Source: Candidatus Microgenomates bacterium
Lineage (GTDB): Bacteria; Patescibacteriota; Microgenomatia; UBA8517; JACQJR01
Length of the DNA: 64,000 nt
Reading direction: 5' to 3'
Assembly: GCA_016204995.1 (NCBI GenBank)
Contig: JACQJR010000001.1
Coordinates: forward strand, 369,132-433,131
The position numbers were made by a program, and so were the translations under genes. Shown here in pieces: positions 7,441-63,382 of the stretch. Each line of letters begins with the position of its first letter. Position 1 is the stretch's first letter. The notes beneath the pieces were generated by a model, which was not told the origin of the DNA, ran no database searches, and worked only from the letters and a program-made list of their open reading frames with translations.

Positions 7441-7493
7441 ATTTACTCCAATTCAAAGTGCAAAATGCAAAATTAAAAATTCCGATAGTAGAA

Positions 7494-12559: not shown

Positions 12560-12672
12560 AGCTCTCCCTTCGGTCGAGAATAATACCAATATTACAAATT
12601 TCAAATTTCAAATGTTTTATCATTGGTATTTATTGGTATTTATTTGATATTGGTACTTATTTTACCATGTTT

Positions 12673-37806: not shown

Positions 37807-40113
37807 TTATCTCTCATCTCGTCGTGATCTGAAAGGTCGCACTCCACGTCTTTCCGGCATAAAACGCGAAATAGGAAAATGCGGCGCCCGGCTCATTCCT
37901 CCCGGACGGCGGCCGAAATTACGCGGCCCGCGACTGTCGTTCCGATCAGATCTGACTGGACCACCACGATCCCTCCGATCATCAGTTTTCGCGCCTTCAC
38001 CATTTCTCATGGTTAAATTAATTCTACCCAACTCATCAATTTCCTTAACTTTGACAGTAACTTTTTGACCAATAGAAACTACTTCGTTGGGATCATTGAC
38101 AAATGAATCGGACAAATCAGAAATGTGGACTAAACCGTCTTTACCTGGCAAAATCTCCACAAAGGCCCCGAATGGCTGAATCCGTTTCACTTCCCCTTCG
38201 TAAACCTCCCCCGGCTGAACTTTTTTGGTTAAACCCTCTATCACGCTTCTGGCTTTCAGGACTGATTCATCACTTACGCCGCTGATATTAACTGTGCCGT
38301 CATCTTCCACCTCAATTTGAGCCCCGCTATCGGCCATAATCTTGCGGATCATCCGACCGCCCGGACCAATCACTTCGCCAATTAATTCGGTAGGAATATG
38401 CAGCATCACAATCCGGGGAGCGTATTCCGACAGCTTCTCCCGCGGCGCAGCTAAATGCTCGGTAATTTTAGCTAAAATATGCATTCTGCCTACTTTGGCC
38501 TTCTCCAAAGCTTGTTCCAAAATAGCCACTGTCAACTCTAACGTTTTGACATCTAATTGAATAGCGGTAATACCTTCACTCGTGCCTGCTACCTTAAAAT
38601 CCATATCGCCCGAGCCATCTTCAATACCGGCAATATCAGATAAAACTACAAAGTTGTCTTTATCTATTACCAAACCCATGGCAATACCGGCTACTGGCCG
38701 GGAAATTGGCACGCCGGCATCCATTAAGGCTAGCGTGGAACCGCAAGTAGAAGCCATAGAAGTGGAACCGTTGGAAGATAAAATTTCTGACACCACGTGA
38801 ATTGCATAGGGAAACTTTTCTTCACTAGGCAAAACTGGCATGAGAGCTCTTTCTGCCAAGGCTCCATGGCCGATTTCGCGGCGGTTAGGACTGCCAATCC
38901 GACCAGTTTCGCCAGTGGCATAAGGCGGCATGGAATAATAATGCATATAGCGCTTGGTTTCTTCGCCTTCGGCCGACTCTATCTTTTGTTCTAAACTAGG
39001 AGCACCTAGCGTTGCTACTGACAAAGCTTGAGTTTGGCCACGGGTAAAAATGGCTGAACCATGAGTGCGGGGCAAAATACCAGTTTGAACGGTAATTTGA
39101 CGAATTTCTTCTGGTTTACGACCATCTGGCCGAATACCTTTCAAAAGTTTATCTCTTAATCTTTTACGAACAATTTCTTCAAAAACGAAGGAGGCTTGTT
39201 GATCAGTGATGTGGAAATCTTCTTTAATGGCAGCCTTGATGGCAGCTGCTTCTTGCTCACTGGTACGGTTGGTAGCCCGGCCAATGGCCCATTCTTCAAT
39301 CTGATCACCATATTTTTTATCAATTTCGGCACTTTCTTTAATCTTGGCTGAAGAGGTTGGTAATTGTTTAGCTCCTACTTTTTGGACAAATTCGTTAATT
39401 CCGGTTTGTATAACTTTAATTTCGCGTTGTGCAGCAGTGATGGCTCCAATGATCTTTTCCTCGCTGATCTCACGAGAGCCTGCTTCTAACATTAAAATTG
39501 ATTCATCATGTCCAGTCACCACTAAATCAAGGTCGGAAAATTTCAATTCTGACTCTAAAGGATTAATAATAAAATCACCATTGATGGCGCCTACTCTAAC
39601 TACCCCGACTGGCCCCTTCCAAGGGGTACCAGCTAAAGCTAGAGCTGCTGAAGCTGCTACCGCTGATAAAACTGCCGGATCATTTTCCGCGTCAACCGAC
39701 AGGGTAGTTAAAACTACTTGGACTTCATCACGATAATCTTTAGGAAAGAGGGGACGAAGAGAGCGATCAATTAAACGACCGGACAGAATTGCCTCGTCAC
39801 TTGGCCTACCTTCTCGTTTGACCCATTGGCTACCTTTGATCCGGCCACCGGCGTAAAGTCTTTCCACATAATCAACCGTCATCGGCATATAACCAGGATC
39901 ATTAAGTAATGGTTTAACCACCACGGTCGCCAAAACTATTAAATCGCCATAGCGAGCCATGACCGCGCCGCTGGCAAAGCCGGCAATATCACCAGTTGAG
40001 AAAATTAATTTTCTGCCTGCGACTTCAAATTCGTGGGTAATCTTCTCACGAGTCATTTTTACTTGAGTAACTTTTTTTTGAGTTTCTTTTTTCATTCTTT
40101 CTTTGTCTAACAT
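37807..40113 (-). CDS. pnp: polyribonucleotide nucleotidyltransferase (PNPase) with Arg-rich C-terminal tail
   Basis: 768 aa; two RNase PH domains, KH and S1 domains; C-terminal DRRDRGGPVRSDRNDSRGPRNFGRRPGG... Confidence 0.95.
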   Translation of the reverse strand: MLDKERMKKETQKKVTQVKMTREKITHEFEVAGRKLIFSTGDIAGFASGAVMARYGDLIVLATVVVKPLLNDPGYMPMTVDYVERLYAGGRIKGSQWVKREGRPSDEAILSGRLIDRSLRPLFPKDYRDEVQVVLTTLSVDAENDPAVLSAVAASAALALAGTPWKGPVGVVRVGAINGDFIINPLESELKFSDLDLVVTGHDESILMLEAGSREISEEKIIGAITAAQREIKVIQTGINEFVQKVGAKQLPTSSAKIKESAEIDKKYGDQIEEWAIGRATNRTSEQEAAAIKAAIKEDFHITDQQASFVFEEIVRKRLRDKLLKGIRPDGRKPEEIRQITVQTGILPRTHGSAIFTRGQTQALSVATLGAPSLEQKIESAEGEETKRYMHYYSMPPYATGETGRIGSPNRREIGHGALAERALMPVLPSEEKFPYAIHVVSEILSSNGSTSMASTCGSTLALMDAGVPISRPVAGIAMGLVIDKDNFVVLSDIAGIEDGSGDMDFKVAGTSEGITAIQLDVKTLELTVAILEQALEKAKVGRMHILAKITEHLAAPREKLSEYAPRIVMLHIPTELIGEVIGPGGRMIRKIMADSGAQIEVEDDGTVNISGVSDESVLKARSVIEGLTKKVQPGEVYEGEVKRIQPFGAFVEILPGKDGLVHISDLSDSFVNDPNEVVSIGQKVTVKVKEIDELGRINLTMRNGEGAKTDDRRDRGGPVRSDRNDSRGPRNFGRRPGGMSRAPHFPISRFMPERRGVRPFRSRRDER

Positions 40114-40139
40114 CTAAATTCTAATATCTAAAATCTAAC

Positions 40140-40415
40140 TTATGGAAGCTTTTCCTCTTTTAATTGCGACATCAGTTTAGCGTATCTTGTTTTATCCCGT
40201 CTTTCTAAATAACTTAATAATCTTCTCCTTTTGGCTACCATTGATAAAAGACCGCGACGGGAATGATCATCTTTTTTATGAGTTTGCAAATGTTGAGCTA
40301 GTTTTTGAATTTGGACGGAAAGAAGTGCTATTTGTACTTCAGGACTGCCTGTATCTTTCTCTCCCTGACCAAATTTTTCAATGATTCTCTGCTTTTCTTG
40401 AGGCTCAAGTGCCAT
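40140..40415 (-). CDS. rpsO: 30S ribosomal protein S15
   Basis: 91 aa; [49 protein letters not shown]15 signature; upstream of pnp. Confidence 0.85.
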
Positions 40416-45863: not shown

Positions 45864-46097
45864 TTAAAACTGCACGACAGGAACATCTATTGTATTGTCA
45901 GGTTTAGCATTTAAGGCCTGGTGGATTTTTTGATCAATTTTATCGCTAACTTTTGCCTCAAAATACCTTTCTCCGCATTGTTGGCACACCAGAGCTGGAA
46001 CATCACGTAGAGCAAGAAGATCCTTACCCCAATATCGGGCAATATCTACTTTTTCTTTCTTTAATTTACCACCGCAAAAATAACAAATGTTTGTCAT
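45864..46097 (-). CDS. YgiT-type (MqsA-like) zinc-finger protein, putative antitoxin
   Basis: 77 aa; CYFCGGK...CQQCGERY two CxxC pairs with YgiT-type spacing; downstream of the DUF4258-like gene. Confidence 0.6.
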   Translation of the reverse strand: MTNICYFCGGKLKKEKVDIARYWGKDLLALRDVPALVCQQCGERYFEAKVSDKIDQKIHQALNAKPDNTIDVPVVQF

Positions 46098-46133: not shown

Positions 46134-46436
46134 TTAGTCGTTTGGTATATAGACTGTGACAATAACAGGTTTTTTAAATCTTAAACCAATGACTACATGA
46201 ATTAATTTATTAGTTTTCGTCTTACCTGCTATCAGACGGCTTTCGCCTCGTGGATCATCCAATCTCTCTTTTATAACAGAACCTGAAAATATTGCTTCCT
46301 CTATCTCATTAACAGTCAACTTATCATTTATTCTTTCTTCATCTGCATGTTCTGAAAAAAGATAATCTTTTTTGCTGATTAAACCCTGTATCTTCTTAAA
46401 ATCCATAGGCAAGAATCTATTTATTATAACTCTCAA
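46134..46436 (-). CDS. DUF4258-like small protein, putative toxin partner of the YgiT zinc-finger protein
   Basis: 100 aa; ...YLFSEHADEERINDKLTVNEIEEAIFSG... resembles the DUF4258 fold; paired gene arrangement. Confidence 0.5.
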   Translation of the reverse strand: MRVIINRFLPMDFKKIQGLISKKDYLFSEHADEERINDKLTVNEIEEAIFSGSVIKERLDDPRGESRLIAGKTKTNKLIHVVIGLRFKKPVIVTVYIPND

Positions 46437-46504: not shown

Positions 46505-47392
46505 TTATAATCCTTCTTCCGCCAATTCTTCAATTAATTCTTTTTGATCTCGGGTCAGTTTTTCAGGGATAGCCACATTCACCCGAACATACTCGTCGCC
46601 TCGTCCCCGGCCGCGCAGATGGGGGATACCACGCTCCTTTAATCTCATCATGGAGCCTGATTGAATACCAGGCCGGATCCGCAATTTCAAATCGCCATCA
46701 ATTGTCGGCACTTTAATTTCCCCGCCCAGTACCGCCAGGCTAAAAGGAATTACTACTTCTACAATCACGTCGCTCCCTTCTCGTCTAAAAACCGGATCTG
46801 GCTGAACACCAATTGTGATATCAAAATCGGCAAAGGCCAAATGAGTTCCATCGTCTGCCCCGGCCGGGATTTTAATAGTCCGTTTTTTGCCCTCAATAGC
46901 AACAGTTTTTTCAACTCCTTTGGCCGCTTCCTTAAAACTAATCTCTAAATGATAATGGGGTTTTTGGGCGCGTCTGTCTCCAAAAGGCGAACCGCCACCG
47001 AAAAATTGTTCAAAAATTTCAAAGGGATCGCCAAAGTCTCCAAAAGGCGAACCGCCACCAGAAGTGGTATAAGTATAAGTAAAAGGACCATAACGGCCAG
47101 TGCGAGCCTGTCCACCGCCACCTCCGAAACCACCACCAAAAGGCCCGCCGCCTGGCATGCCACCGGGGGTAAAAGCGGCATGACCAAATTGGTCATAAGC
47201 GTTCTTTTTTTCCGGATTAGAAAGGACTTCGTAGGCCTCGCTGGCTTCTTTGAATTTTTGTTCAGCTTCGGCGGATTTATTGCGGTCTGGATGCCACTCT
47301 AGGGCTTGCTTGCGATAAGCGCGTTTTATTTCCTCACTTGAGGCATTTTTGGTAACTCCCAGAATATCATAGTAATCTCTTTTTGTAGCCAT
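46505..47392 (-). CDS. dnaJ: J-domain co-chaperone (DnaJ/CbpA-like, no zinc-finger region, single C-terminal domain)
   Basis: 295 aa; J domain [33 protein letters not shown]; G/F-rich region with internal duplicated GGGSPFGD; no CxxCxGxG repeats. Confidence 0.8.
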
Positions 47393-47404
47393 AATAATTC
47401 AATT

Positions 47405-47817
47405 ACAAATGCTAAATGATAAATGCTAAATTAATTTTTCTTCGCATTGATAACAATTTTGCTAATTATAGCAATTATCTGCTGATTCTCATCTAAAACT
47501 GGCTCAAATCTAGTTTTTAAACTTAAATTATGGTCGGACAATAATGATAGCCAATAATGCGTTTCTTTTGCTTCTTTCTTAGAAATAGTAAACCTATGTA
47601 TAAACTCTTTCTTAGATTCTGCTCCATCCGCCTCGCTGGCATTCGCACCTATTGAACCAGATGATCTTATAACTTGTCTTATCATTACTAAATTTTCTGG
47701 AGTATTGGGTACGAATTTAACTATTTGGAGAACACCTAAGACGAATTTATATATTCTATTATGTATATCTCTAGTTTTGATTTCATTGGCCATTTATCAT
47801 TGGACATTTAGCATTAA
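47405..47817. repeat. inverted repeats flanking the four-helix-bundle gene (left 47405-47430, right 47794-47817)
   Basis: left AAATGCTAAATGATAAATGCTAAAT; reverse complement of the right AATGCTAAATGTCCAATGATAAATG; shared AATGCTAAATG and ATGATAAATG blocks in inverted orientation. Confidence 0.6.
47431..47793 (-). CDS. four-helix-bundle protein (23S rRNA intervening-sequence protein family, TIGR02436-like)
   Basis: 120 aa; ...SGSIGANASEADGAESKKEFIHRFTISKKEAKETHYWLSLL... typical of this family; inserted between dnaK and dnaJ; flanked by inverted repeats. Confidence 0.7.
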   Translation of the reverse strand: MANEIKTRDIHNRIYKFVLGVLQIVKFVPNTPENLVMIRQVIRSSGSIGANASEADGAESKKEFIHRFTISKKEAKETHYWLSLLSDHNLSLKTRFEPVLDENQQIIAIISKIVINAKKN

Positions 47818-49730
47818 CTTACCACTTCTCCCTCTTCCACATTCTCTTTCTTTTTATCTTCTTTTTTTTCTTCCGCTTTCTCATCGGATCCGGCTTCACC
47901 GGAGGAGGCGGCTTCACCCTGTGGCTGAGCTTGTTGGTACATGGCACTTCCAACTTGCTGTAAAACTTCAGAAAGAGATTTGGTAGCCAGTTCCAACTGA
48001 TCTTTGCCAGCATCTTCTTGGGCCAGCAGTTCTTTCACTTTCTTCACCTCGTCTTCTACTTTAGTTTTGACATCGGCCGACACTTTATCTCCCGCATCTT
48101 TTAAAGTTTTATCGGCAGTAAAAACCAACGCATCAGCATTGTTTCTGGCTTCAATCGTTTCCTTTTTGGCTGCATCTTCGCTGGCGTGCTTTTCTGCCTC
48201 TTCTTGCATCTTCTTGATTTCACTATCTGACAAACCCACCGCCCCGGTAATGGTAATTTTCTGTTCCCGGTTGGTCGCTTTATCGTGTGCTTTTACATTT
48301 AAGATGCCGTTCGCGTCCATATCAAAAGTTACTTCAATTTGGGGAATGCCGCGTGGTGCCGGCGGAATACCATCTAAAATAAACCTGCCTAAAGATTTGT
48401 TATCAACAGCTAATGGCCGCTCACCTTGAGTGACATTAATCTCCACTTGAGTTTGATTATCAGCCGCCGTGGAGAAAATTTGGCTTTTGCTGGTGGGCAC
48501 CGTGGTATTTCGCGGAATCATGGGGGTAGCCACTCCGCCTAAAGTCTCAATAGATAAACTCAAAGGCGTCACATCCAGCAGTAAAATGTCTTTGACTTCA
48601 CCTGATAACACCCCGCCTTGAATGGCCGCGCCGATTGCCACCACCTCATCCGGATTAACCCCCTTATGCGGCTCTTTGCCGAAAAATTCGTGGACTACTT
48701 CCTGAACTTTGGGCATTCTGGTCATTCCCCCTACTAACACCACCTCGTCTACTTTTTTGGAATCTACTTTGGCGTCTTTCAAACAAGCCGCGACTGGCTT
48801 CATCGTCTTCTCAATTAAATCACCCACCAAAGCTTCCAATTTGGCCCGAGATAATTTCATGGTCAAATGCAAAGGAGTGCCGTCTTTTTGAGTAATGTAG
48901 GGTTGGTTAATTTCAGTTTCGGTGGCGCTGGAAAGTTCAATCTTGGCTTTTTCGGCCGCATCTCGTAATCTTTGTAAGGCTTGAGGGTCTTGCCGCAAAT
49001 CAGTACTGTATTCTTTCTTAAACTCATCGGCAATCCAATTCATAATCACCTGATCAAAATCGTCTCCGCCTAAATGGGTATCGCCGTTAGTAGCTTTAAC
49101 TTCAAAAACACCTTCGCCCAATTCCAAAATAGAAATATCAAAAGTGCCGCCGCCCAAATCGTAAACGGCAATGGTGTGGGCATTTTTCTTATCAAGACCA
49201 TAGGCCAAGGCCGCCGCGGTTGGTTCGTTAATAATCCGCTCCACTTTCAACCCGGCAATTTCCCCGGCCTGTTTAGTGGCAGTTCTTTGATTGTCGTCAA
49301 AATAAGCAGGAACCGTAATAACGGCCCGATCAACTGTTTCGCCTAAATAACTTTCCGCATCTTTTTTCAATTTTGTCAAAATGCGAGCAGAAATTTCCTG
49401 AGGAGAATAAGCTTTCCCTTCTACCACCACTTCAGCCAAACCATCTTTGCCGGCGCGAATCTCATAAGGCACCATTTTCTTGGTTTTTTCTACTTCGGGA
49501 TCGCTAACTCTGTGGCCCATCAATCTTTTAATGGAATAAATGGTGCTCTTGGGGTTTAAAATCATTTGCCGTTTGGCCACATCACCTACCAAATTTTTAA
49601 CCGGCTCAACAACGGATGGGGTAATATTGCGGCCAGTATCAGCCGCCGGAATCACCTTGGGCTGTCCGCCTTCCAAAACCGCGACGACCGAATTAGTCGT
49701 TCCTAAATCAATACCGATTATTTTACTCAT
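47814..49730 (-). CDS. dnaK: molecular chaperone DnaK (start taken at internal [14 protein letters not shown])
   Basis: [32 protein letters not shown] Hsp70 signatures. Confidence 0.96.
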
Positions 49731-50151
49731 GTAATTCCTCCTTTTTTCCAAAAACCTTCACTTTGGCTGGCCGAATGATAAAATCCTCATTTTTCATTTT
49801 CCAGCCTGGCTGAACTACTTCGCAAATGGTATTAACCTGATCGTCTTCTACCATCTGTACTGCTTCTTCCAAAAGCGGATTAAATTTATCTCCTACTTGG
49901 ACTGCTATTACTTCTACTCCTAGATCCGCCAGAGCCGATTTAAAATCTTGAATGACTAATTCTAAACCGCTATCCTTTAAATGCTCCTGGGCCTTATTTA
50001 GCATATCAAAAACTGGCAAAATTCTCAAAACTATTTTGGCAGTTTCAATTTTTGACCAATCTGCCCGATCTGACTCAATCCTTTTTCTTAAATTATCATA
50101 ATCGGCCAGAGCTCTGGCCAGTTGAATTTTTAACTCATTTTTTTTCTGCAT
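49723..50151 (-). CDS. grpE: nucleotide exchange factor GrpE (short form)
   Basis: 142 aa; coiled-coil then ...[14 protein letters not shown]... GrpE motif; between hrcA and dnaK. Confidence 0.8.
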
Positions 50152-50155
50152 ACAA

Positions 50156-50893
50156 TTAGAAATCCCTCATCGCTTCTGATAATAAACTGCCAAAATATCT
50201 GACGCGGGGTATGACATAAGAAAAAGGCAGGCGAGCCGGCCCTACTACCCCGACTGCACAATGTCGACCTTTATTACCAATGAGAAATTTGGTGGCCACA
50301 ATCCCAATTGGCTCAAAATAGGGCCAGCCTAATTCTTCCCCGAACAGAATTGCTACCGGCTCTCCCGGTAATTTTTCAAAAAATAGTTCCTGTATTCTTT
50401 TAACTTCTTCCAAGATGGCTAAAACATGAGAGGTCACGTCAATATTATAAAATTCCGGCTTTTCTAAAATTTTAGCATAGCCGGCGTGCCAAATTGAATC
50501 GTCATCTTCTAGGGCGCCAATCGCTAAAGTACCAGTAGATTGGGCCAGAGCGCGAGTGGCTTCGCGCATCACATGATCCACGTCACGCTTTGAATCTTTA
50601 ATTCGCTCCTTAGCTGAAACCTCTTCGGTGACTGACAGCTGTTTTTCATCCATTAACTGCTGGACATAGAAACGCAAACCGCGAGAGGTGGGAATGCGGC
50701 CGGCAGAGGAGAAGGTCTGTTTTAGAAAGCCAGAACGAGTCAAAGCTACCATTTCATTACGAATAGTAGCAGGCGATACACCTAAACTATATTTTTTCTC
50801 CAGAGTTTCTGAACCGACTGGTTCAGCCGCTTCAATATATTCTTCAATTAGCGCCTTTAAAATATGAGCTTGTCTGGGAGTTAATTCGTTCAT
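50156..50893 (-). CDS. hrcA: heat-inducible transcription repressor HrcA
   Basis: 245 aa; N-terminal wHTH LTPRQAHILKALIEEYIEAAEPVGSETL; CIRCE element immediately upstream. Confidence 0.85.
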   Translation of the reverse strand: MNELTPRQAHILKALIEEYIEAAEPVGSETLEKKYSLGVSPATIRNEMVALTRSGFLKQTFSSAGRIPTSRGLRFYVQQLMDEKQLSVTEEVSAKERIKDSKRDVDHVMREATRALAQSTGTLAIGALEDDDSIWHAGYAKILEKPEFYNIDVTSHVLAILEEVKRIQELFFEKLPGEPVAILFGEELGWPYFEPIGIVATKFLIGNKGRHCAVGVVGPARLPFSYVIPRVRYFGSLLSEAMRDF

Positions 50894-50920: not shown

Positions 50921-50947
50921 TTAGCACTATAATACCACGACTGCTAA
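50921..50947. promoter_or_regulatory. CIRCE operator (HrcA binding site) upstream of hrcA-grpE-dnaK
   Basis: TTAGCACTA-N9-GACTGCTAA, 27 nt before the hrcA start; one mismatch to the consensus TTAGCACTC-N9-GAGTGCTAA. Confidence 0.75.
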
Positions 50948-51089
50948 TCTTGTCAAGGGCCAACTTAACTTTAAAAGAGGCATAAAACGTGTAAGTGCGG
51001 ATATATGTAAGTTTTCCTCAGGGTGTAAGGATAACCATAAAGATATTGTGAATATTAATCCAAAATTACATTAGATCTGAAAATAGGAG

Positions 51090-58606: not shown

Positions 58607-58800
58607 ATCTTTTTTTATTATACTACAAAATCTAATGTTGCAAAAAAATTTACCAAAACCGCTTCAAAGTAATCCTAGACAAACATAGTTTCACTTCATA
58701 TACTGCGTTTAGTAATTAGTAATGAGAGCTGAGAGGTTGGTAAAATAAAACATTCAACTACTAAACTCTAACCTCTAAACTACTAACTACTCATTGACCC

Positions 58801-60165: not shown

Positions 60166-61580
60166 GGAAAGAACGGACTATTCCCACCGTCATTGGTCTA
60201 GTGTTACTGCTGGCCGGGGTAGGAATTTCCGTTCTGCTAGTTCAGCGCCAGCAGTTTTTTAAACTAACGGCGGCGCCGGAAATTACCCCCAAAGATGTCA
60301 GAATCACCAATGTAACTGATGGCGGCTTTACTGTTTCCTGGATGACAGACAAAGAAACCATCGGTTTTGTTTCCTTTGGCGATTCCACCTCATTGGGTCA
60401 GATAGCCCAAGATGATCAAGGGACCAAGAGTTCTCCCTTACACCATGTTACCATCTCCAATTTATCTACCAATACTCGCTACTTTTTCAAAATCGGCTCC
60501 GATCGCGACACCTTTGACCAGGATGGGAAGCCGTGGGAGCAAAAAACCGCGACACAACTTTCACCTCGGACAGCCGATGTCATCTCCGGTACTGTCAAAA
60601 ATAGCCAAGGCGCGCCGGCAAGCGACGCTTTAGTCTATGTCACCCTGCCGCAAGCCGCCCCTCTCTCTACCACCACCGATAGTTCCGGTAGTTTTTCTTT
60701 GTCACTGGCCCCTGCCCGCACCACCAATTTATCTTCCTATGTCACCTACGATAAAAATAATGCCCTCTTGTCTATTTTCGTCCAGGCAGGAAGCGGTCAA
60801 GTATCTTCGGCCCAAGTAGCAGCCGCTAGCGCTCACCCTGTCCCGCCTTTAATTTTGGGCCAGACTCATGATTTTCGTCGCTTAAGCCAGACTGGCGAAG
60901 CTACCTCTCCCGGCGCTGATTTAGCCTTACCATCGGCAGCGCCGACTGCTTCGCCCGAAAGCGCCAGCTCGGGTTTTAATTTAAACCCGATTGCTTCCAG
61001 CTCGCCCGCACCCTCGGTAGATAAACTAACTATTGATAATCCCAAAGAGGGAGAAAATATCAGCACTAAAACTCCGGAGTTTCGTGGTCAGGGTCCTAAA
61101 GGCGTTAAAGTTAACTTAACTCTTAACTCCACTACCCCCATCACCGGTACCGCCACAGTAGCCGCAAATGGCACTTGGACCTGGACGCCGCCCCAAACCT
61201 TAACTACCGGTAGTCACATCCTAATTGCCACTCTTACCGATAGCAAAGGTCAAAAACAAACCACTTCGCGCAATTTTAGCGTCTTAGCCAAAGCGGCTAA
61301 TTTACCAGCTTTTACCGCCACCGGTTCGGCTCAAGCCAGCCCCGGTCCAACCGGGGCCAGTCCCAGTGCCACGCCTCGCGTTACTGCTAGTCCTTCTGCT
61401 TCACCTCGAGCTAGTATTATACCCACTGTGGCCCCTCGCATCTCTATGCCTTCTACCGAATCTGGGGTACCCGTTTCTGGCGACTTGACAAATACTATTG
61501 CAGTTTTCATACTGGGTATAACCTCCATTTTTGGAGGGGCTCTCTTGTTCATAAAAACAAGAGGGAATAATTACCAATAA
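60162..61580 (+). CDS. cell-surface protein: N-terminal signal anchor, FN3-like domain, carboxypeptidase-regulatory-like domain, Thr/Ser/Pro-rich spacers, C-terminal TM plus basic tail (sortase-substrate-like architecture)
   Basis: 472 aa; VRITNVTDGGFTVSWMTDKETIGFVSFG (FN3/purple-acid-phosphatase N-terminal-like); ISGTVKNSQGAPASDALVYV (CarboxypepD_reg-like); C-terminus ...VPVSGDLTNTIAVFILGITSIFGGALLFIKTRGNNYQ. Confidence 0.55.
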   Translation: MRKERTIPTVIGLVLLLAGVGISVLLVQRQQFFKLTAAPEITPKDVRITNVTDGGFTVSWMTDKETIGFVSFGDSTSLGQIAQDDQGTKSSPLHHVTISNLSTNTRYFFKIGSDRDTFDQDGKPWEQKTATQLSPRTADVISGTVKNSQGAPASDALVYVTLPQAAPLSTTTDSSGSFSLSLAPARTTNLSSYVTYDKNNALLSIFVQAGSGQVSSAQVAAASAHPVPPLILGQTHDFRRLSQTGEATSPGADLALPSAAPTASPESASSGFNLNPIASSSPAPSVDKLTIDNPKEGENISTKTPEFRGQGPKGVKVNLTLNSTTPITGTATVAANGTWTWTPPQTLTTGSHILIATLTDSKGQKQTTSRNFSVLAKAANLPAFTATGSAQASPGPTGASPSATPRVTASPSASPRASIIPTVAPRISMPSTESGVPVSGDLTNTIAVFILGITSIFGGALLFIKTRGNNYQ

Positions 61581-61663
61581 TTACCAATATCCGATAATAC
61601 CAATGCATCAATCATTGGAAATTGGACATTTGAAATTGGTAGTATTGGTATTATTTTATTATT

Positions 61664-63382
61664 ATGCCCGACGAATCTGCCCAGAAGCCTGTTTCACCCG
61701 CTAGTCCTACAGTCGGACCGGCTACCCCGCCTCCTGTCCATGAACCCATCACTCCTAACTCTGAACCATCTATGCCGGAAGCAACCCACGATTTCCCGAC
61801 GATTCCCACTTCAGAACAAACTATTCCTACCATGCCGCCAACAGATCCCACTTCCCCTCCCTTCGGCTCCAGTTCGACTTCGCTCACTGCGGGCGCTCAG
61901 GGCCTGCGGCCTACTGCACAACCGGCACCAGCCGCTCCCAATTTTAGCCCGGGCGGCATCCCGCCTGTCATTACTCCACCCTCGCCCCGCCGGCCCAAAG
62001 CCAAAATTGTCGGAGCGATACTGGCTTTATTGATTTTAGTGGTGGGTATTCCGGTCGGAGTTTTTTTAGTCCAGCAAAATCAAGAAGTCCGCGAAAAAGC
62101 TTCTACTTGTCAAGATGATTGTAACAGCGCGCTCACTAGTTGTAATAATCAATGTAATCAAAATTTTGACAGCTGTACGGGCACTTGTGGGCCTGCAGAT
62201 GGCTCTACAGAATACGAAAGCTGCTATGGCGCTTGTCAAGGTGCACAAAACAGTTGCAATAGTGGGTGTGGTGGCGAATTTGATTTTTGTCTCACTTCTT
62301 GCGGCAGCACCACTTGTCCTGACGGCATTTGCAGCGATGAAGAATTTAATAATGGTTCCTGTGCTCAAGACTGCGGTTCGCCTGGATCAAACGTCTGCGG
62401 CGATGGAACCTGTAGCGATGAAGAATTTAATAACAACAATTGTCCTCAAGATTGTACGCCAACCGATGGGGACGGGGATGGTGGGGGTGGAGAAAGTAAC
62501 TATTGTATAGAAGCTGGGTATCATCAATGCACTCCTGGTAGCCCAGCCGGAACTTGTACCAATAATGGTCAAACCTGTACCTCTTATGAGCATTATGCCT
62601 GTAATTATGGAGGGCAGAATTACTGCGACGCACCGATTTGCGATACCAATTCTTGTGGTGGTGGAGATGACGGCGGAGGTGGTGGAGGCTGCCAATACAA
62701 TAACGCCTATGATGCCGGCTTATTAGCCGACAAACCAAATCCTAATGACCAATGCGGCACTCAAGATGGCATTTATTGTAACAATGGCAATACTAATTTC
62801 TGTTGTTACGGCGATGGAAATTGTTTTGCAGGCCAGCAAGGATCCTGTACTAATAACGGCAATGGCAGTATCACCACTACTCAATCTGCCCAAATTATTG
62901 AATTCTCGTGTCCCGGCCAGACTTCAGCGACGGGCAGCTGTTCGGAAAATCAAACCTCTAAAGGTAATCAACCGGCCGGCACTTACACCACGGGCGGCAG
63001 CGGCTGCGGCGGCTTCCAGATAGATGCAGTGGGTCTGTGCGGCAGCTATAAATTTGTTTCCTGCGGGGGCGGTGGCGAGCCAGAGGTTAACAATCAATGT
63101 TTGAACATTAAAGCTTATGATACTAATTGGAAACAGCTGTCAACCAGTGAACTGGCTCAACTTAAAGTGGGAGATCAAATTCGGGTGGCGGTTAACGGCA
63201 ATACTACTTCCGGGACGTTAAATAAAGCCAGATTTAGAATTAATAATAGTTCGTCCTGGCAAGAAACTACGGCTAAAAATCCCAACGGCGAATTCTATAT
63301 TTCCGTGACTATTTCTCAAGGACCACCTACTTGGAAATTTGATGCCCAATTACATCATCAAGAAAGTGATACTTGGTTCTAA
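61664..63382 (+). CDS. type II membrane protein with Pro-rich N-terminal cytoplasmic region, one TM, and a very cysteine-rich repeat ectodomain (about 70 Cys) ending in a beta-rich C-terminal domain
   Basis: 572 aa; TM IVGAILALLILVVGIPVGVFLV; repeated units CPDGICSDEEFNNGSCAQDCGSP and CGDGTCSDEEFNNNNCPQDCTPT plus many CxxxC pairs; Gly-rich spacers. Confidence 0.6.
   Translation: MPDESAQKPVSPASPTVGPATPPPVHEPITPNSEPSMPEATHDFPTIPTSEQTIPTMPPTDPTSPPFGSSSTSLTAGAQGLRPTAQPAPAAPNFSPGGIPPVITPPSPRRPKAKIVGAILALLILVVGIPVGVFLVQQNQEVREKASTCQDDCNSALTSCNNQCNQNFDSCTGTCGPADGSTEYESCYGACQGAQNSCNSGCGGEFDFCLTSCGSTTCPDGICSDEEFNNGSCAQDCGSPGSNVCGDGTCSDEEFNNNNCPQDCTPTDGDGDGGGGESNYCIEAGYHQCTPGSPAGTCTNNGQTCTSYEHYACNYGGQNYCDAPICDTNSCGGGDDGGGGGGCQYNNAYDAGLLADKPNPNDQCGTQDGIYCNNGNTNFCCYGDGNCFAGQQGSCTNNGNGSITTTQSAQIIEFSCPGQTSATGSCSENQTSKGNQPAGTYTTGGSGCGGFQIDAVGLCGSYKFVSCGGGGEPEVNNQCLNIKAYDTNWKQLSTSELAQLKVGDQIRVAVNGNTTSGTLNKARFRINNSSSWQETTAKNPNGEFYISVTISQGPPTWKFDAQLHHQESDTWF

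Follow-up and report, generated by a model that had tools for sequence, protein, structure and literature searches.

The gene and its heptamer arms

In this study, we examined a small gene between dnaK and dnaJ in a 64,000-nucleotide stretch of contig JACQJR010000001.1 from a Candidatus Microgenomates bacterium (the whole stretch is called the window in what follows), together with the inverted arrays of 7-nt units by which this gene is bracketed. On the minus strand, the genes follow one another in the order hrcA (50156-50893), grpE (49723-50151), dnaK (47814-49751), an open reading frame (ORF) of 120 aa (47431-47793), dnaJ (46505-47392, with a J domain and a C-terminal domain) and a pair of genes for a DUF4258 protein and a zinc-ribbon protein. 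An earlier note on this DNA had assigned the ORF to the four-helix-bundle (4HB) family of ribosomal RNA (rRNA) intervening sequences (IVS), had described it as interrupting the hrcA-grpE-dnaK-dnaJ operon and had taken the inverted repeats around it as a sign of a small mobile cassette. The family assignment is borne out by matches to PF05635 23S_rRNA_IVP (E=6.3e-19, 68.6 bits against a cut-off of 33.8, model positions 4-105 of 106), TIGR02436 'four helix bundle protein' (E=3.3e-23, 82 bits against a cut-off of 24) and PDB 2rld_A (E=6e-18, residues 3-119 against 4-120 of 121), and the NCBI entry identical to the protein bears the name 'four helix bundle protein'. Judged by these matches, the protein is a single-domain member of PF05635/TIGR02436 (S23p), similar in length to its relatives and with a four-helix fold predicted from full-length homology to 2rld. 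An alignment with 51 homologues contains 31 invariant columns. Between lineages carrying the gene at the dnaK-dnaJ site, pN amounts to 0.16-0.25 and pS to 0.67-0.89 (saturated), with a median dN/dS of 0.13, and from these substitution rates the 4HB protein is shown to be under purifying selection.

The interruption of the operon could likewise be confirmed, with the gene located between dnaK and dnaJ and a CIRCE (controlling inverted repeat of chaperone expression) operator upstream of hrcA. This operator (50921-50947) reads TTAGCAGTC-N9-TAGTGCTAA, with 2 mismatches to the consensus where 0 such sites are expected by chance, and it overlaps the -10 region of a sigma-70-like hrcA promoter (TTGACA-16-TATTAT, 11/12 matches, with TG), so that operon promoter and operator together occupy 50921-50956 on the minus strand. 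Between dnaK and dnaJ no terminator-like site was found in this window. Since promoter and CIRCE lie upstream of hrcA and a terminator-like site is missing between dnaK and dnaJ, the 4HB ORF is most simply placed in the heat-shock operon transcript, and the hrcA promoter presumably drives transcription of the cassette as part of the hrcA-grpE-dnaK-dnaJ message. A scan of the 64-kb window with Rfam detected no rRNA and, at the cassette, no known RNA family.

Both flanks of the gene are built from phased heptamers. On the coding strand, the 5' arm (47781-47816, minus strand) consists of the five units AATGCTA AATGTCC AATGATA AATGGCC AATGAAA, in which AATG recurs five times at an exact spacing of 7 nt (47815, 47808, 47801, 47794 and 47787); it was recognized from direct and inverted repeats and from an array called by Tandem Repeats Finder (TRF) at 47783-47815. 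The first AATG heptamer overlaps the dnaK stop codon (47814-47816), which therefore lies inside the arm, and the fourth holds the 4HB start ATG (47793-47791). The 3' arm (47405-47430, minus strand; TRF array 47407-47431, period 7, 3.6 copies) reads TTTAGCATTTATCATTTAGCATTTGT on the coding strand and is made of three nnnCATT units, reverse complements of the 5' arm units, with CATT at 7-nt spacing past the 4HB stop codon (47425, 47418 and 47411). It begins directly after this stop, ends 12 nt before the dnaJ ATG and thereby constitutes the leader of dnaJ. A Shine-Dalgarno sequence is missing at both the 4HB gene and dnaJ, while dnaK has AAGGAGG just before its probable true start at ATG 49730. 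As an inverted repeat, the arms span 47408-47431 and 47792-47815 (24 nt, 83% complementary). Of the two blocks that had been pointed out previously, AATGCTAAATG is found exactly at 47408-47418 (+) and 47805-47815 (-) and AATGATAAATG at 47415-47425 (+) and 47791-47801 (-). In the predicted stem, 11 perfect bp are followed by an internal loop of 3 nt, by 4 bp, and, past a mismatch, by another 5 bp; the whole is A/U-rich, with mismatches every 7 nt.

Several observations on the arms and the gene are of a minor nature. Over 25 nt of the 5' arm, four AUG codons are distributed among three reading frames; three of these AUGs do not share the frame of the 4HB ORF, begin very short ORFs and could act as decoy starts. 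Many gene calls of homologues start with MIN or MLN, at ATGATAAATG or ATGCTAAATG inside the 5' arm. The arm hexamers TGCTAA and TTAGCA correspond to the outer halves of CIRCE, and we considered the arms as a CIRCE element and rejected this: the two halves are ~360 nt apart and in opposite order, they are missing from more distant 4HB cassettes, and the true CIRCE lies at the hrcA promoter, so that we regard the likeness as coincidental. A promoter-like site in the 3' end of the 4HB ORF (47465-47492, minus strand), ~75 nt upstream of dnaJ, shows a perfect extended -10 box TGCTATAAT (47473-47465); it was discarded as a promoter, since it overlaps the codons of a conserved IAIIS motif and is not conserved in the homologous locus of a Woesebacteria genome (L066).

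Statistical support for the arms from the window alone is moderate. The flank-flank duplex energy amounts to -26.5 kcal/mol, compared to -15.1 +/- 3.2 kcal/mol in shuffled sequences (z = -3.5, 1/100 shuffles as good), and ranks 12th among the 69 genes of the window and 2nd among the 34 genes with equally AT-rich flanks. With one mismatch or fewer, the quoted arm blocks match six times in 64 kb, five of these matches at the two cassette flanks, where 2.4 matches are expected and 4/100 shuffles reach six. The window by itself is unconvincing, and we accept the inverted repeat as real because of the comparison across homologous loci.

Conservation, pairing and history of the element

A DnaJ scan of species-representative genomes yielded 80 Microgenomates loci, 63 of which contain both dnaK and dnaJ. 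In 46 of these 63 related species the spacer between the two genes measures 172 nt or less, in many 15 nt or less, and 13 relatives show a very tight junction (-8 to +14 nt); the remaining 17 loci contain varied inserts. The dnaK-dnaJ junction is therefore regarded as ancestrally tight and as a recurrent landing site, and from the spacers of its relatives the cassette is shown to be an insertion relative to this tight junction. The other inserts, seen among L004-L083, encode PHP-domain proteins (in at least 3 lineages), glmS (2), PIN-toxin pairs (2), a DUF6941 protein and a GH63-like hydrolase, and further ones are several ORFs without a family match. Many short spacers of 4HB-less relatives contain a GC-rich terminator hairpin followed by TTTTTAGTATAAT with its TATAAT box, from which we conclude that dnaJ has a promoter of its own in these lineages. 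Several 4HB-less relatives possess ORF-less inverted heptamer hairpins in the spacer (e.g. L011, -43 kcal/mol, z=-8.4), which may be the same element minus the gene.

With a profile of the 4HB protein, 56 loci were retrieved from metagenomes, and all homologues that have at least 56% identity and flanks that could be read (~30 contigs) are located at the dnaK-dnaJ site. We assembled 25 distinct loci from this site, in which the 4HB gene is 56-76% identical, as a comparison set. Among the loci of the DnaJ scan, the Woesebacteria genome mentioned above has a 69% identical gene, accompanied by the same flanking blocks and a spacer of 423 nt, compared to 421 nt here. Allowing one mismatch, AATGCTAAA is present in the 5' flank of 24/25 loci and TTTAGCATT in the 3' flank of 23/25, and 22/25 contain both blocks correctly oriented, whereas the wrong orientation gave 0-1 and shuffled flanks 0.9 loci. 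AATG and CATT are distributed 107:2 upstream and 7:71 downstream. Since the arms are kept while synonymous sites are saturated and pN is low, arm sequences and 4HB protein are both under purifying selection. Among 18 contiguous loci, 17 have their first repeat starting at most 9 nt from the dnaK stop, with overlap of the stop in 7 (TAATG or TGAATG), and in several loci the last CATT directly adjoins the dnaJ ATG (CATTATG). Between loci in general, the number of repeats varies from ~2 to >12. This comparison shows the gene and both arms to be one conserved unit at the dnaK-dnaJ junction of a subset of Microgenomates. The inverted repeats reported earlier are thus real rather than AT-rich noise, as is apparent from the controls across the 25 loci. 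Relatives with the gene at the same site and no repeats would, according to the earlier note, have spoken against its cassette; the relatives do carry the repeats, and we therefore take the arms as a conserved functional structure rather than as fresh transposon ends.

Individual loci depart from this arrangement in detail. In L110 (1191-1345), ~100 nt with two GC-rich hairpins are added between ORF and 3' arm, in L109 (1687-3000) a segment of 1.3 kb separates dnaK from the 5' arm, and in L101 (3336-3430) the 3' arm is expanded and partly duplicated to 93 nt; in these three loci the arms are still situated beside the 4HB start and the dnaJ start. In L139 (5-1393) the 4HB homologue is split by an insertion of ~1.17 kb with a long ORF; here the cassette gene would itself have received a second-order insertion.

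Homologues of lower identity (37-54%), located in other contexts, carry arrays of different sequence, with units such as CCAATnn, CAAATCC, CACAAAT and GCCTTGA, which retain the period of 7 and are inverted between the flanks. Seven is the unique best period in 33/46 5' flanks and 35/46 3' flanks. Inverted heptamer arms accompany more distant 4HB genes in the candidate phyla radiation (CPR), Cyanobacteria, Chloroflexota, Bacteroidota and Bacillota. On plasmid pNPUN02 of Nostoc punctiforme, TTCGCAA x4 precedes and TTGCGAA x4 follows the gene, with both arms more than 100 nt from the neighbouring genes. Dolichospermum has CGTAATT x4 upstream and TTACGAA x4 downstream, Euhalothece CCAGTGA-type units upstream and TCACTGG x12 downstream, and Chlorohelix (Chloroflexota) ATGAAGG-type and TCATAAT-type units; Monoglobus (Bacillota) and two Bacteroidota fit the same inverted pattern. 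The Planktothrix copy is flanked by CCCCAAT x4 and CGTAAAT x3 upstream and by CGATTTA-type units downstream, and its CCCCAAT is what we take to be the classical STRR1 unit of the short tandemly repeated repetitive (STRR) sequences. The copies in cultured organisms lie between genes of the same operon, namely helicase/methylase, adaptor/permease of a resistance-nodulation-division (RND) system, hsdS/hsdR and once cas2/cas1. The earlier view that the family is usually found in 23S rRNA does not agree with these contexts, nor with an Rfam scan in which none of 31 more distant or atypical homologous loci fell in an rRNA gene and no known RNA family was matched at their cassettes. The non-rRNA insertion context that had been emphasized for this genome is correct, but it is not new in itself.

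As an alignment-free substitute for covariation, we compared the duplex energies of own and crossed arms. In the distant set, the 5' arms pair best with their own 3' arms, the summed energy being -749 kcal/mol in contrast to -486 +/- 35 kcal/mol for permuted partners, with 0/10,000 permutations as good. Across subfamilies and phyla, the heptamer sequence differs, but the two arms of a locus remain mutually complementary. Comparison of the two strands further indicated where this pairing may take place. Duplexes of the coding strand are more stable than antisense ones in 34/46 loci (mean difference -3.15 kcal/mol, Wilcoxon p=2e-4) and contain more G-U pairs (228/1760 compared to 131/1580). The predicted fold of the 446-nt cassette RNA reaches z=-5.1 versus shuffles, and its minimum free energy (MFE) structure includes a terminal long-range stem; MFE structures of 34/46 loci contain at least 10 long-range pairs. 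In 46 full-length folds, pairs between the first and last 70 nt average 24.7, and 10.8 if the 3' flank is swapped (p=8e-6). These predictions favour pairing of the arms in the sense transcript rather than in DNA.

On a neighbour-joining tree of DnaK+DnaJ, gene-bearing loci fall into two clades, where they are interleaved with gene-less ones and form five sister pairs of opposite status. Distances between 4HB proteins track those of DnaK+DnaJ (Mantel r=0.67, p=1e-4), and the arm variants follow host clades. The simplest history is an old insertion that was passed on mostly vertically and lost repeatedly. That the insertion is recent or private is contradicted by this correlation and by the common site of all homologues of at least 56% identity. 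GC contents of 0.30-0.34 for the 4HB gene and cassette, compared to 0.45-0.50 for dnaK and dnaJ, were weighed as a mark of recent horizontal acquisition and set aside, since the low-GC gene is old at the dnaK-dnaJ site; we attribute the low GC to the Lys/Ile/Asn-rich protein and the A/T-rich arms. One locus (L099, 2885-2968) retains a relic of the first ~23 dnaJ codons between the dnaK stop and the 5' arm. Read from an ATG of its own, 6 nt past the dnaK stop, the relic stays in frame; it has 71% DNA identity to the start of the resident dnaJ and preserves the tight dnaK junction as in its 4HB-less sister L014. By its position and sequence, it is the scar of an independent insertion or recombination event, so that at least one independent insertion can be recognized.

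The element among known systems and the weighing of explanations

That 23S rRNA may contain intervening sequences carrying an S23p ORF has been known for some 30 years. The IVS in the 23S rRNA of Coxiella burnetii is bounded by a 28-bp terminal inverted-repeat stem and has tandem heptameric repeats just upstream of the start of its S23p ORF, together with a poor ribosome-binding site; RNase III excises it with a cut at the first repeat, and its ORF is reported to be decaying and probably untranslated (PMC4990558). The cassette between dnaK and dnaJ corresponds to this helix-45 IVS, and to the Leptospira, Brucella and Xanthomonas types, in the S23p-family ORF in the loop, the terminal inverted-repeat stem of ~24-28 bp (24 nt and 83% here), the tandem heptamers just before the start codon (here five AATGnnn units, the fourth with the ATG), the absence of a good Shine-Dalgarno sequence and a total length of ~420-445 nt. 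It differs in its host, which is 23S rRNA (helix 25 or 45) there and the dnaK-dnaJ junction of an mRNA operon here, in its ORF, which is reported as decaying in Coxiella and is under strong purifying selection here, and in RNase III cleavage, which has been demonstrated for the rRNA copies and would here be assumed by analogy. Since its host is an mRNA operon and not 23S rRNA, the cassette is not an rRNA IVS, though it is built like one, and it is best described as an intervening-sequence-type element in mRNA instead of rRNA, with the S23p gene in the loop of inverted 7-nt arrays. PF05635 ORFs have also been recorded in 16S and 23S insertions of CPR organisms (PMC11270868).

Other systems share single features with the element. 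Stems cut by RNase III between cistrons, such as those of phage T7 early mRNAs and rRNA spacers, and hairpins of repetitive extragenic palindromic (REP) and bacterial interspersed mosaic (BIME) elements are likewise double-stranded RNA between cistrons, by which flanking messages could be separated or differentially stabilized, but these structures are local, whereas here a long-range stem of phased tandem repeats encloses a gene. MITEs (miniature inverted-repeat transposable elements) are also short, bounded by inverted repeats, intergenic and without a transposase; the element departs from them by its conserved ORF, the variable copy number in its arms and the lack of a target-site duplication and of identical copies in the window. 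An integron gene cassette was considered and rejected, as tandem heptamers occupy both sides of the ORF, neither an integrase nor an array is present and the gene stands alone between dnaK and dnaJ.

As the likeliest of the mechanisms considered, we tentatively propose a model, to which we assign somewhat less than an even chance, in which pairing of the arms within the operon transcript gives a stem that RNase III processes, rendering the insertion harmless and separating the dnaK, 4HB and dnaJ messages. The element would be transcribed inside the hrcA-grpE-dnaK-dnaJ message, where its arms would pair to an imperfect A/U-rich stem of 24-40 bp that closes off the ~360-nt ORF and brings the stop codon of dnaK beside the leader of dnaJ. 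While paired, the stem would hide the start regions of the 4HB gene and dnaJ, both of which lack a Shine-Dalgarno sequence. RNase III would then cut the stem, as shown experimentally for rRNA copies of this element type, leaving dnaK, the 4HB gene and dnaJ on separate RNAs, so that insertion into the tight junction could be tolerated without harm to the neighbours. Several points weigh against this model. With its mismatches and A/U-rich pairs, the predicted stem is a weak substrate for RNase III; the energetic gain of the sense over the antisense duplexes is modest and comes from phylogenetically non-independent loci; and RNAalifold, applied to 15 mini-hairpins (5' arm + GAAA + 3' arm), returned a consensus energy of only -1.0 kcal/mol, an alignment-based signal of covariation being absent because the repeat copy number differs and the register slips. 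Moreover, the conserved 4-5-nt AATG/CATT core is kept in phase, which is not needed by pairing alone and points to a sequence-specific partner, and heptamer leaders also exist without a partner arm, given that direct, unpaired arrays precede other start codons in the genome.

Such a partner is central to the alternative in which the arms are binding sites for the 4HB protein or another repeat-specific factor, with a ring oligomer reading the phased AATG cores on leader RNA or DNA and autoregulating translation of 4HB and dnaJ, the complementarity of the arms being a secondary or competing structure. Retention of a specific core at exact 7-nt phase, the start codon within the fourth repeat and the presence of exactly five AATG units in the 5' arm would agree with it, as would the five chains with which the closest solved homologue, 2rld, was crystallized, the homopentameric toroid reported for S23p of X. 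campestris (PMC4990558) and the joint shift of heptamer sequence and protein subfamily. Avd, a structural relative of S23p, is an accessory factor of diversity-generating retroelements (PMC10053308), and the paired arrays of Geobacter have been proposed independently as regulator-binding sites (PMC2700814). A repeat number of ~2 to >12, however, clashes with a fixed ring of five subunits, inverted and direct arrays without an ORF occur elsewhere in the genome, the covariation of protein and repeats is confounded by shared ancestry, and a binder of single-stranded RNA would see AAUG and CAUU as different, leaving the inversion without purpose unless the target is double-stranded; we consider this alternative rather unlikely. 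It is quite unlikely, in our assessment, that the stem acts uncleaved as a device of translational coupling, melted by the ribosome that ends dnaK translation so that the leaders of 4HB and dnaJ are freed and the coupling of dnaK to dnaJ, otherwise broken by the insertion, is restored. The closeness of the first repeat to the dnaK stop (17/18 loci, 7 with overlap), the last CATT adjoining the dnaJ ATG, the ancestral junction, whose tightness in 13 relatives (-8 to +14 nt) suggests coupling, and the Shine-Dalgarno sequence of dnaK that both the 4HB gene and dnaJ lack are in line with this explanation, but insertion into a very short spacer may be enough to explain adjoining arms, the arms of Nostoc punctiforme lie far from both neighbours, and the same architecture exists in rRNA, where no translation takes place. 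In addition, many 4HB-less relatives have a terminator and a TATAAT box between dnaK and dnaJ, so that coupling of the two genes would not be required in this clade.

The mobile cassette of the earlier note, a small DNA-level element whose inverted repeats are recombination or transposition ends and which is moved in trans like a MITE or homing element, appears even more unlikely. Patchiness on the DnaK+DnaJ tree with its five sister pairs, the scar with the relic dnaJ 5' end, the low GC relative to the neighbours and the presence of the family in many unrelated operon junctions, and per the literature in 16S and 23S rRNA, would be expected of such an element. Domain matches, however, reveal no transposase or endonuclease in or beside it (its only ORF is the 4HB gene, and its neighbours are DnaK, DnaJ and the DUF4258/zinc-ribbon pair); a conserved direct repeat outside the arms, as expected of a target-site duplication, was not detected across loci; the 64-kb window holds no second copy, paralogue or solo arm motif; and no relatives were found in viral contigs. 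A candidate duplication at this locus, GTAAGTTAAT at the dnaK end and GTAATTGAAT past the 3' arm (8/10 match), was dismissed, as nothing comparable exists at other loci. Autonomous mobility is thus not supported, given the lack of a transposase, a conserved target-site duplication and a second copy in the window, and the divergence of 4HB with its hosts, arms that are variable-copy tandem arrays instead of defined ends and the G-U excess of the coding strand, which points to RNA, stand against movement at the DNA level as well. What remains of the earlier claim is a unit of gene and arms, its insertion relative to the ancestral junction and the insertion scar; the unit is old and resident, and its mobility is unsupported. 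That the similarity of the flanks is a chance product of AT-rich low-complexity sequence is practically negligible as an explanation: the 12th rank of the flank duplex and the six block matches reached by some shuffles would allow it within the window, but blocks, orientation and phase are kept in 22-24 of 25 lineages with saturated synonymous sites, the arms co-vary between subfamilies and perfect examples exist in cultured cyanobacteria, and we regard a chance origin as refuted by own-arm pairing, by the arrays of cultured organisms and by conservation across the 25 loci.

Avd binds nucleic acid, which would also agree with a binding of the repeats by the 4HB protein. A diversity-generating retroelement (DGR) at this locus was rejected. 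No reverse transcriptase is nearby, the immediate neighbours being dnaK and dnaJ and the ORFs on both sides being heat-shock genes and the toxin-antitoxin-like pair, and no pair of repeats of the template/variable (TR/VR) type was found in 47300-47900, for which reasons the 4HB protein is not a DGR Avd.

Heptanucleotide arrays, defence loci and neighbouring genes

Arrays of 7-nt units have been described in several bacterial groups. Xanthomonas has GGGAATC arrays with ~70 inverted pairs (PMC4692102), Geobacter metallireducens has the paired arrays mentioned above (PMC2700814) and Beggiatoaceae have TAACTGA arrays in 5'-UTRs that end at start codons (PMC4679880). With these and with the STRR sequences the cassette arms have in common a 7-nt tandem unit, an intergenic or leader position, often a termination at the start codon and often inverted pairs. 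The published arrays differ in that these reports, as far as they were accessible, do not tie them to an enclosed PF05635 gene, whereas gene and arrays are one conserved unit here. We found no literature tying non-rRNA PF05635 genes to flanking inverted heptamer arrays, older subscription papers being outside the scope of the search, so that a prior description is possible. The arms have the properties by which STRR-like sequences are recognized, being intergenic 7-nt tandem arrays in a window where the period is over-represented: 18 stretches of the window show a period of 7 with at least 21/28 matches, compared to 0-2 for the other periods from 4 to 11, and several of these arrays are also listed by TRF.

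The gene is hereby tied to at least part of the enigmatic STRR-type heptanucleotide repeats, and an architecture of heptamer stem and ORF is seen to be kept under selection in a heat-shock mRNA operon across many Microgenomates. The copies in rRNA thereby appear as one special case of a general element, by which insertion into highly expressed transcripts is tolerated or exploited. A further generalization, which we regard as doubtful, would be that PF05635 genes and inverted heptamer arrays form one IVS-like element that spans phyla, resides in operon junctions as well as in rRNA helices and encodes a protein which reads the repeats, for instance as a ring oligomer on phased 7-nt units. If this were true, what IVS/S23p proteins do and what the STRR-type heptamers of cyanobacteria, Xanthomonas, Geobacter and CPR mean would explain each other, and ORF-less inverted heptamer hairpins would be the same element without, or after losing, its gene. 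What most deserves further work is how PF05635 genes are linked to inverted heptamer arrays throughout the family, and RNase III processing, binding of the repeats by the protein and translational coupling become directly testable.

Some members of the 4HB family are found inside defence loci (L145, Anabaena cylindrica pANACY.01; L148, Monoglobus; L142, L143 and L146), at sites between cas2 and cas1, between hsdS and hsdR and between a helicase-related gene and a DNA methylase; the hsdS-hsdR copy contains an internal stop and is unannotated. The 4HB protein of the window has no match among the PADLOC defence models. In these loci, the 4HB genes look like passengers rather than components, to judge from their surroundings. 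A large clustering study lists '23S rRNA IVP' among CRISPR-associated candidates (PMC10910872), which insertion within cas loci may explain. For annotation, this implies that 'four helix bundle protein' genes in CRISPR-cas, restriction-modification, efflux and chaperone operons are probably passengers.

Heptamer arrays without a gene are also present elsewhere in the window. An ORF-less inverted hairpin at 61562-61666 (plus strand) with units nnACCAAT and ATTGGnn has co-directional genes on either side and a predicted energy of -28 kcal/mol (z=-3.7), and its 3' half reaches the ATG of the next gene. A second, weaker one at 12575-12672 (minus strand; CAAAT and ATTTG, z=-1.8) is likewise located between co-directional genes, and both resemble the cassette arms minus the gene. 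Direct, non-inverted arrays, with units such as TTAGATn, AACTACT and others, occupy 40103-40143, 1720-1774, 58756-58796 and 7447-7486; they end at, or a few bases from, the start codons of genes without a Shine-Dalgarno sequence and are predicted to be unstructured.

Directly downstream of dnaJ, a DUF4258 protein (46134-46436, minus strand; E=2.5e-17) is followed by the small zinc-ribbon protein (45864-46097, minus strand), which has weak MqsA/YokU antitoxin-like matches. The two genes probably represent a toxin-antitoxin pair by these similarities, and they are AT-rich like the cassette, with a GC content of ~0.31.

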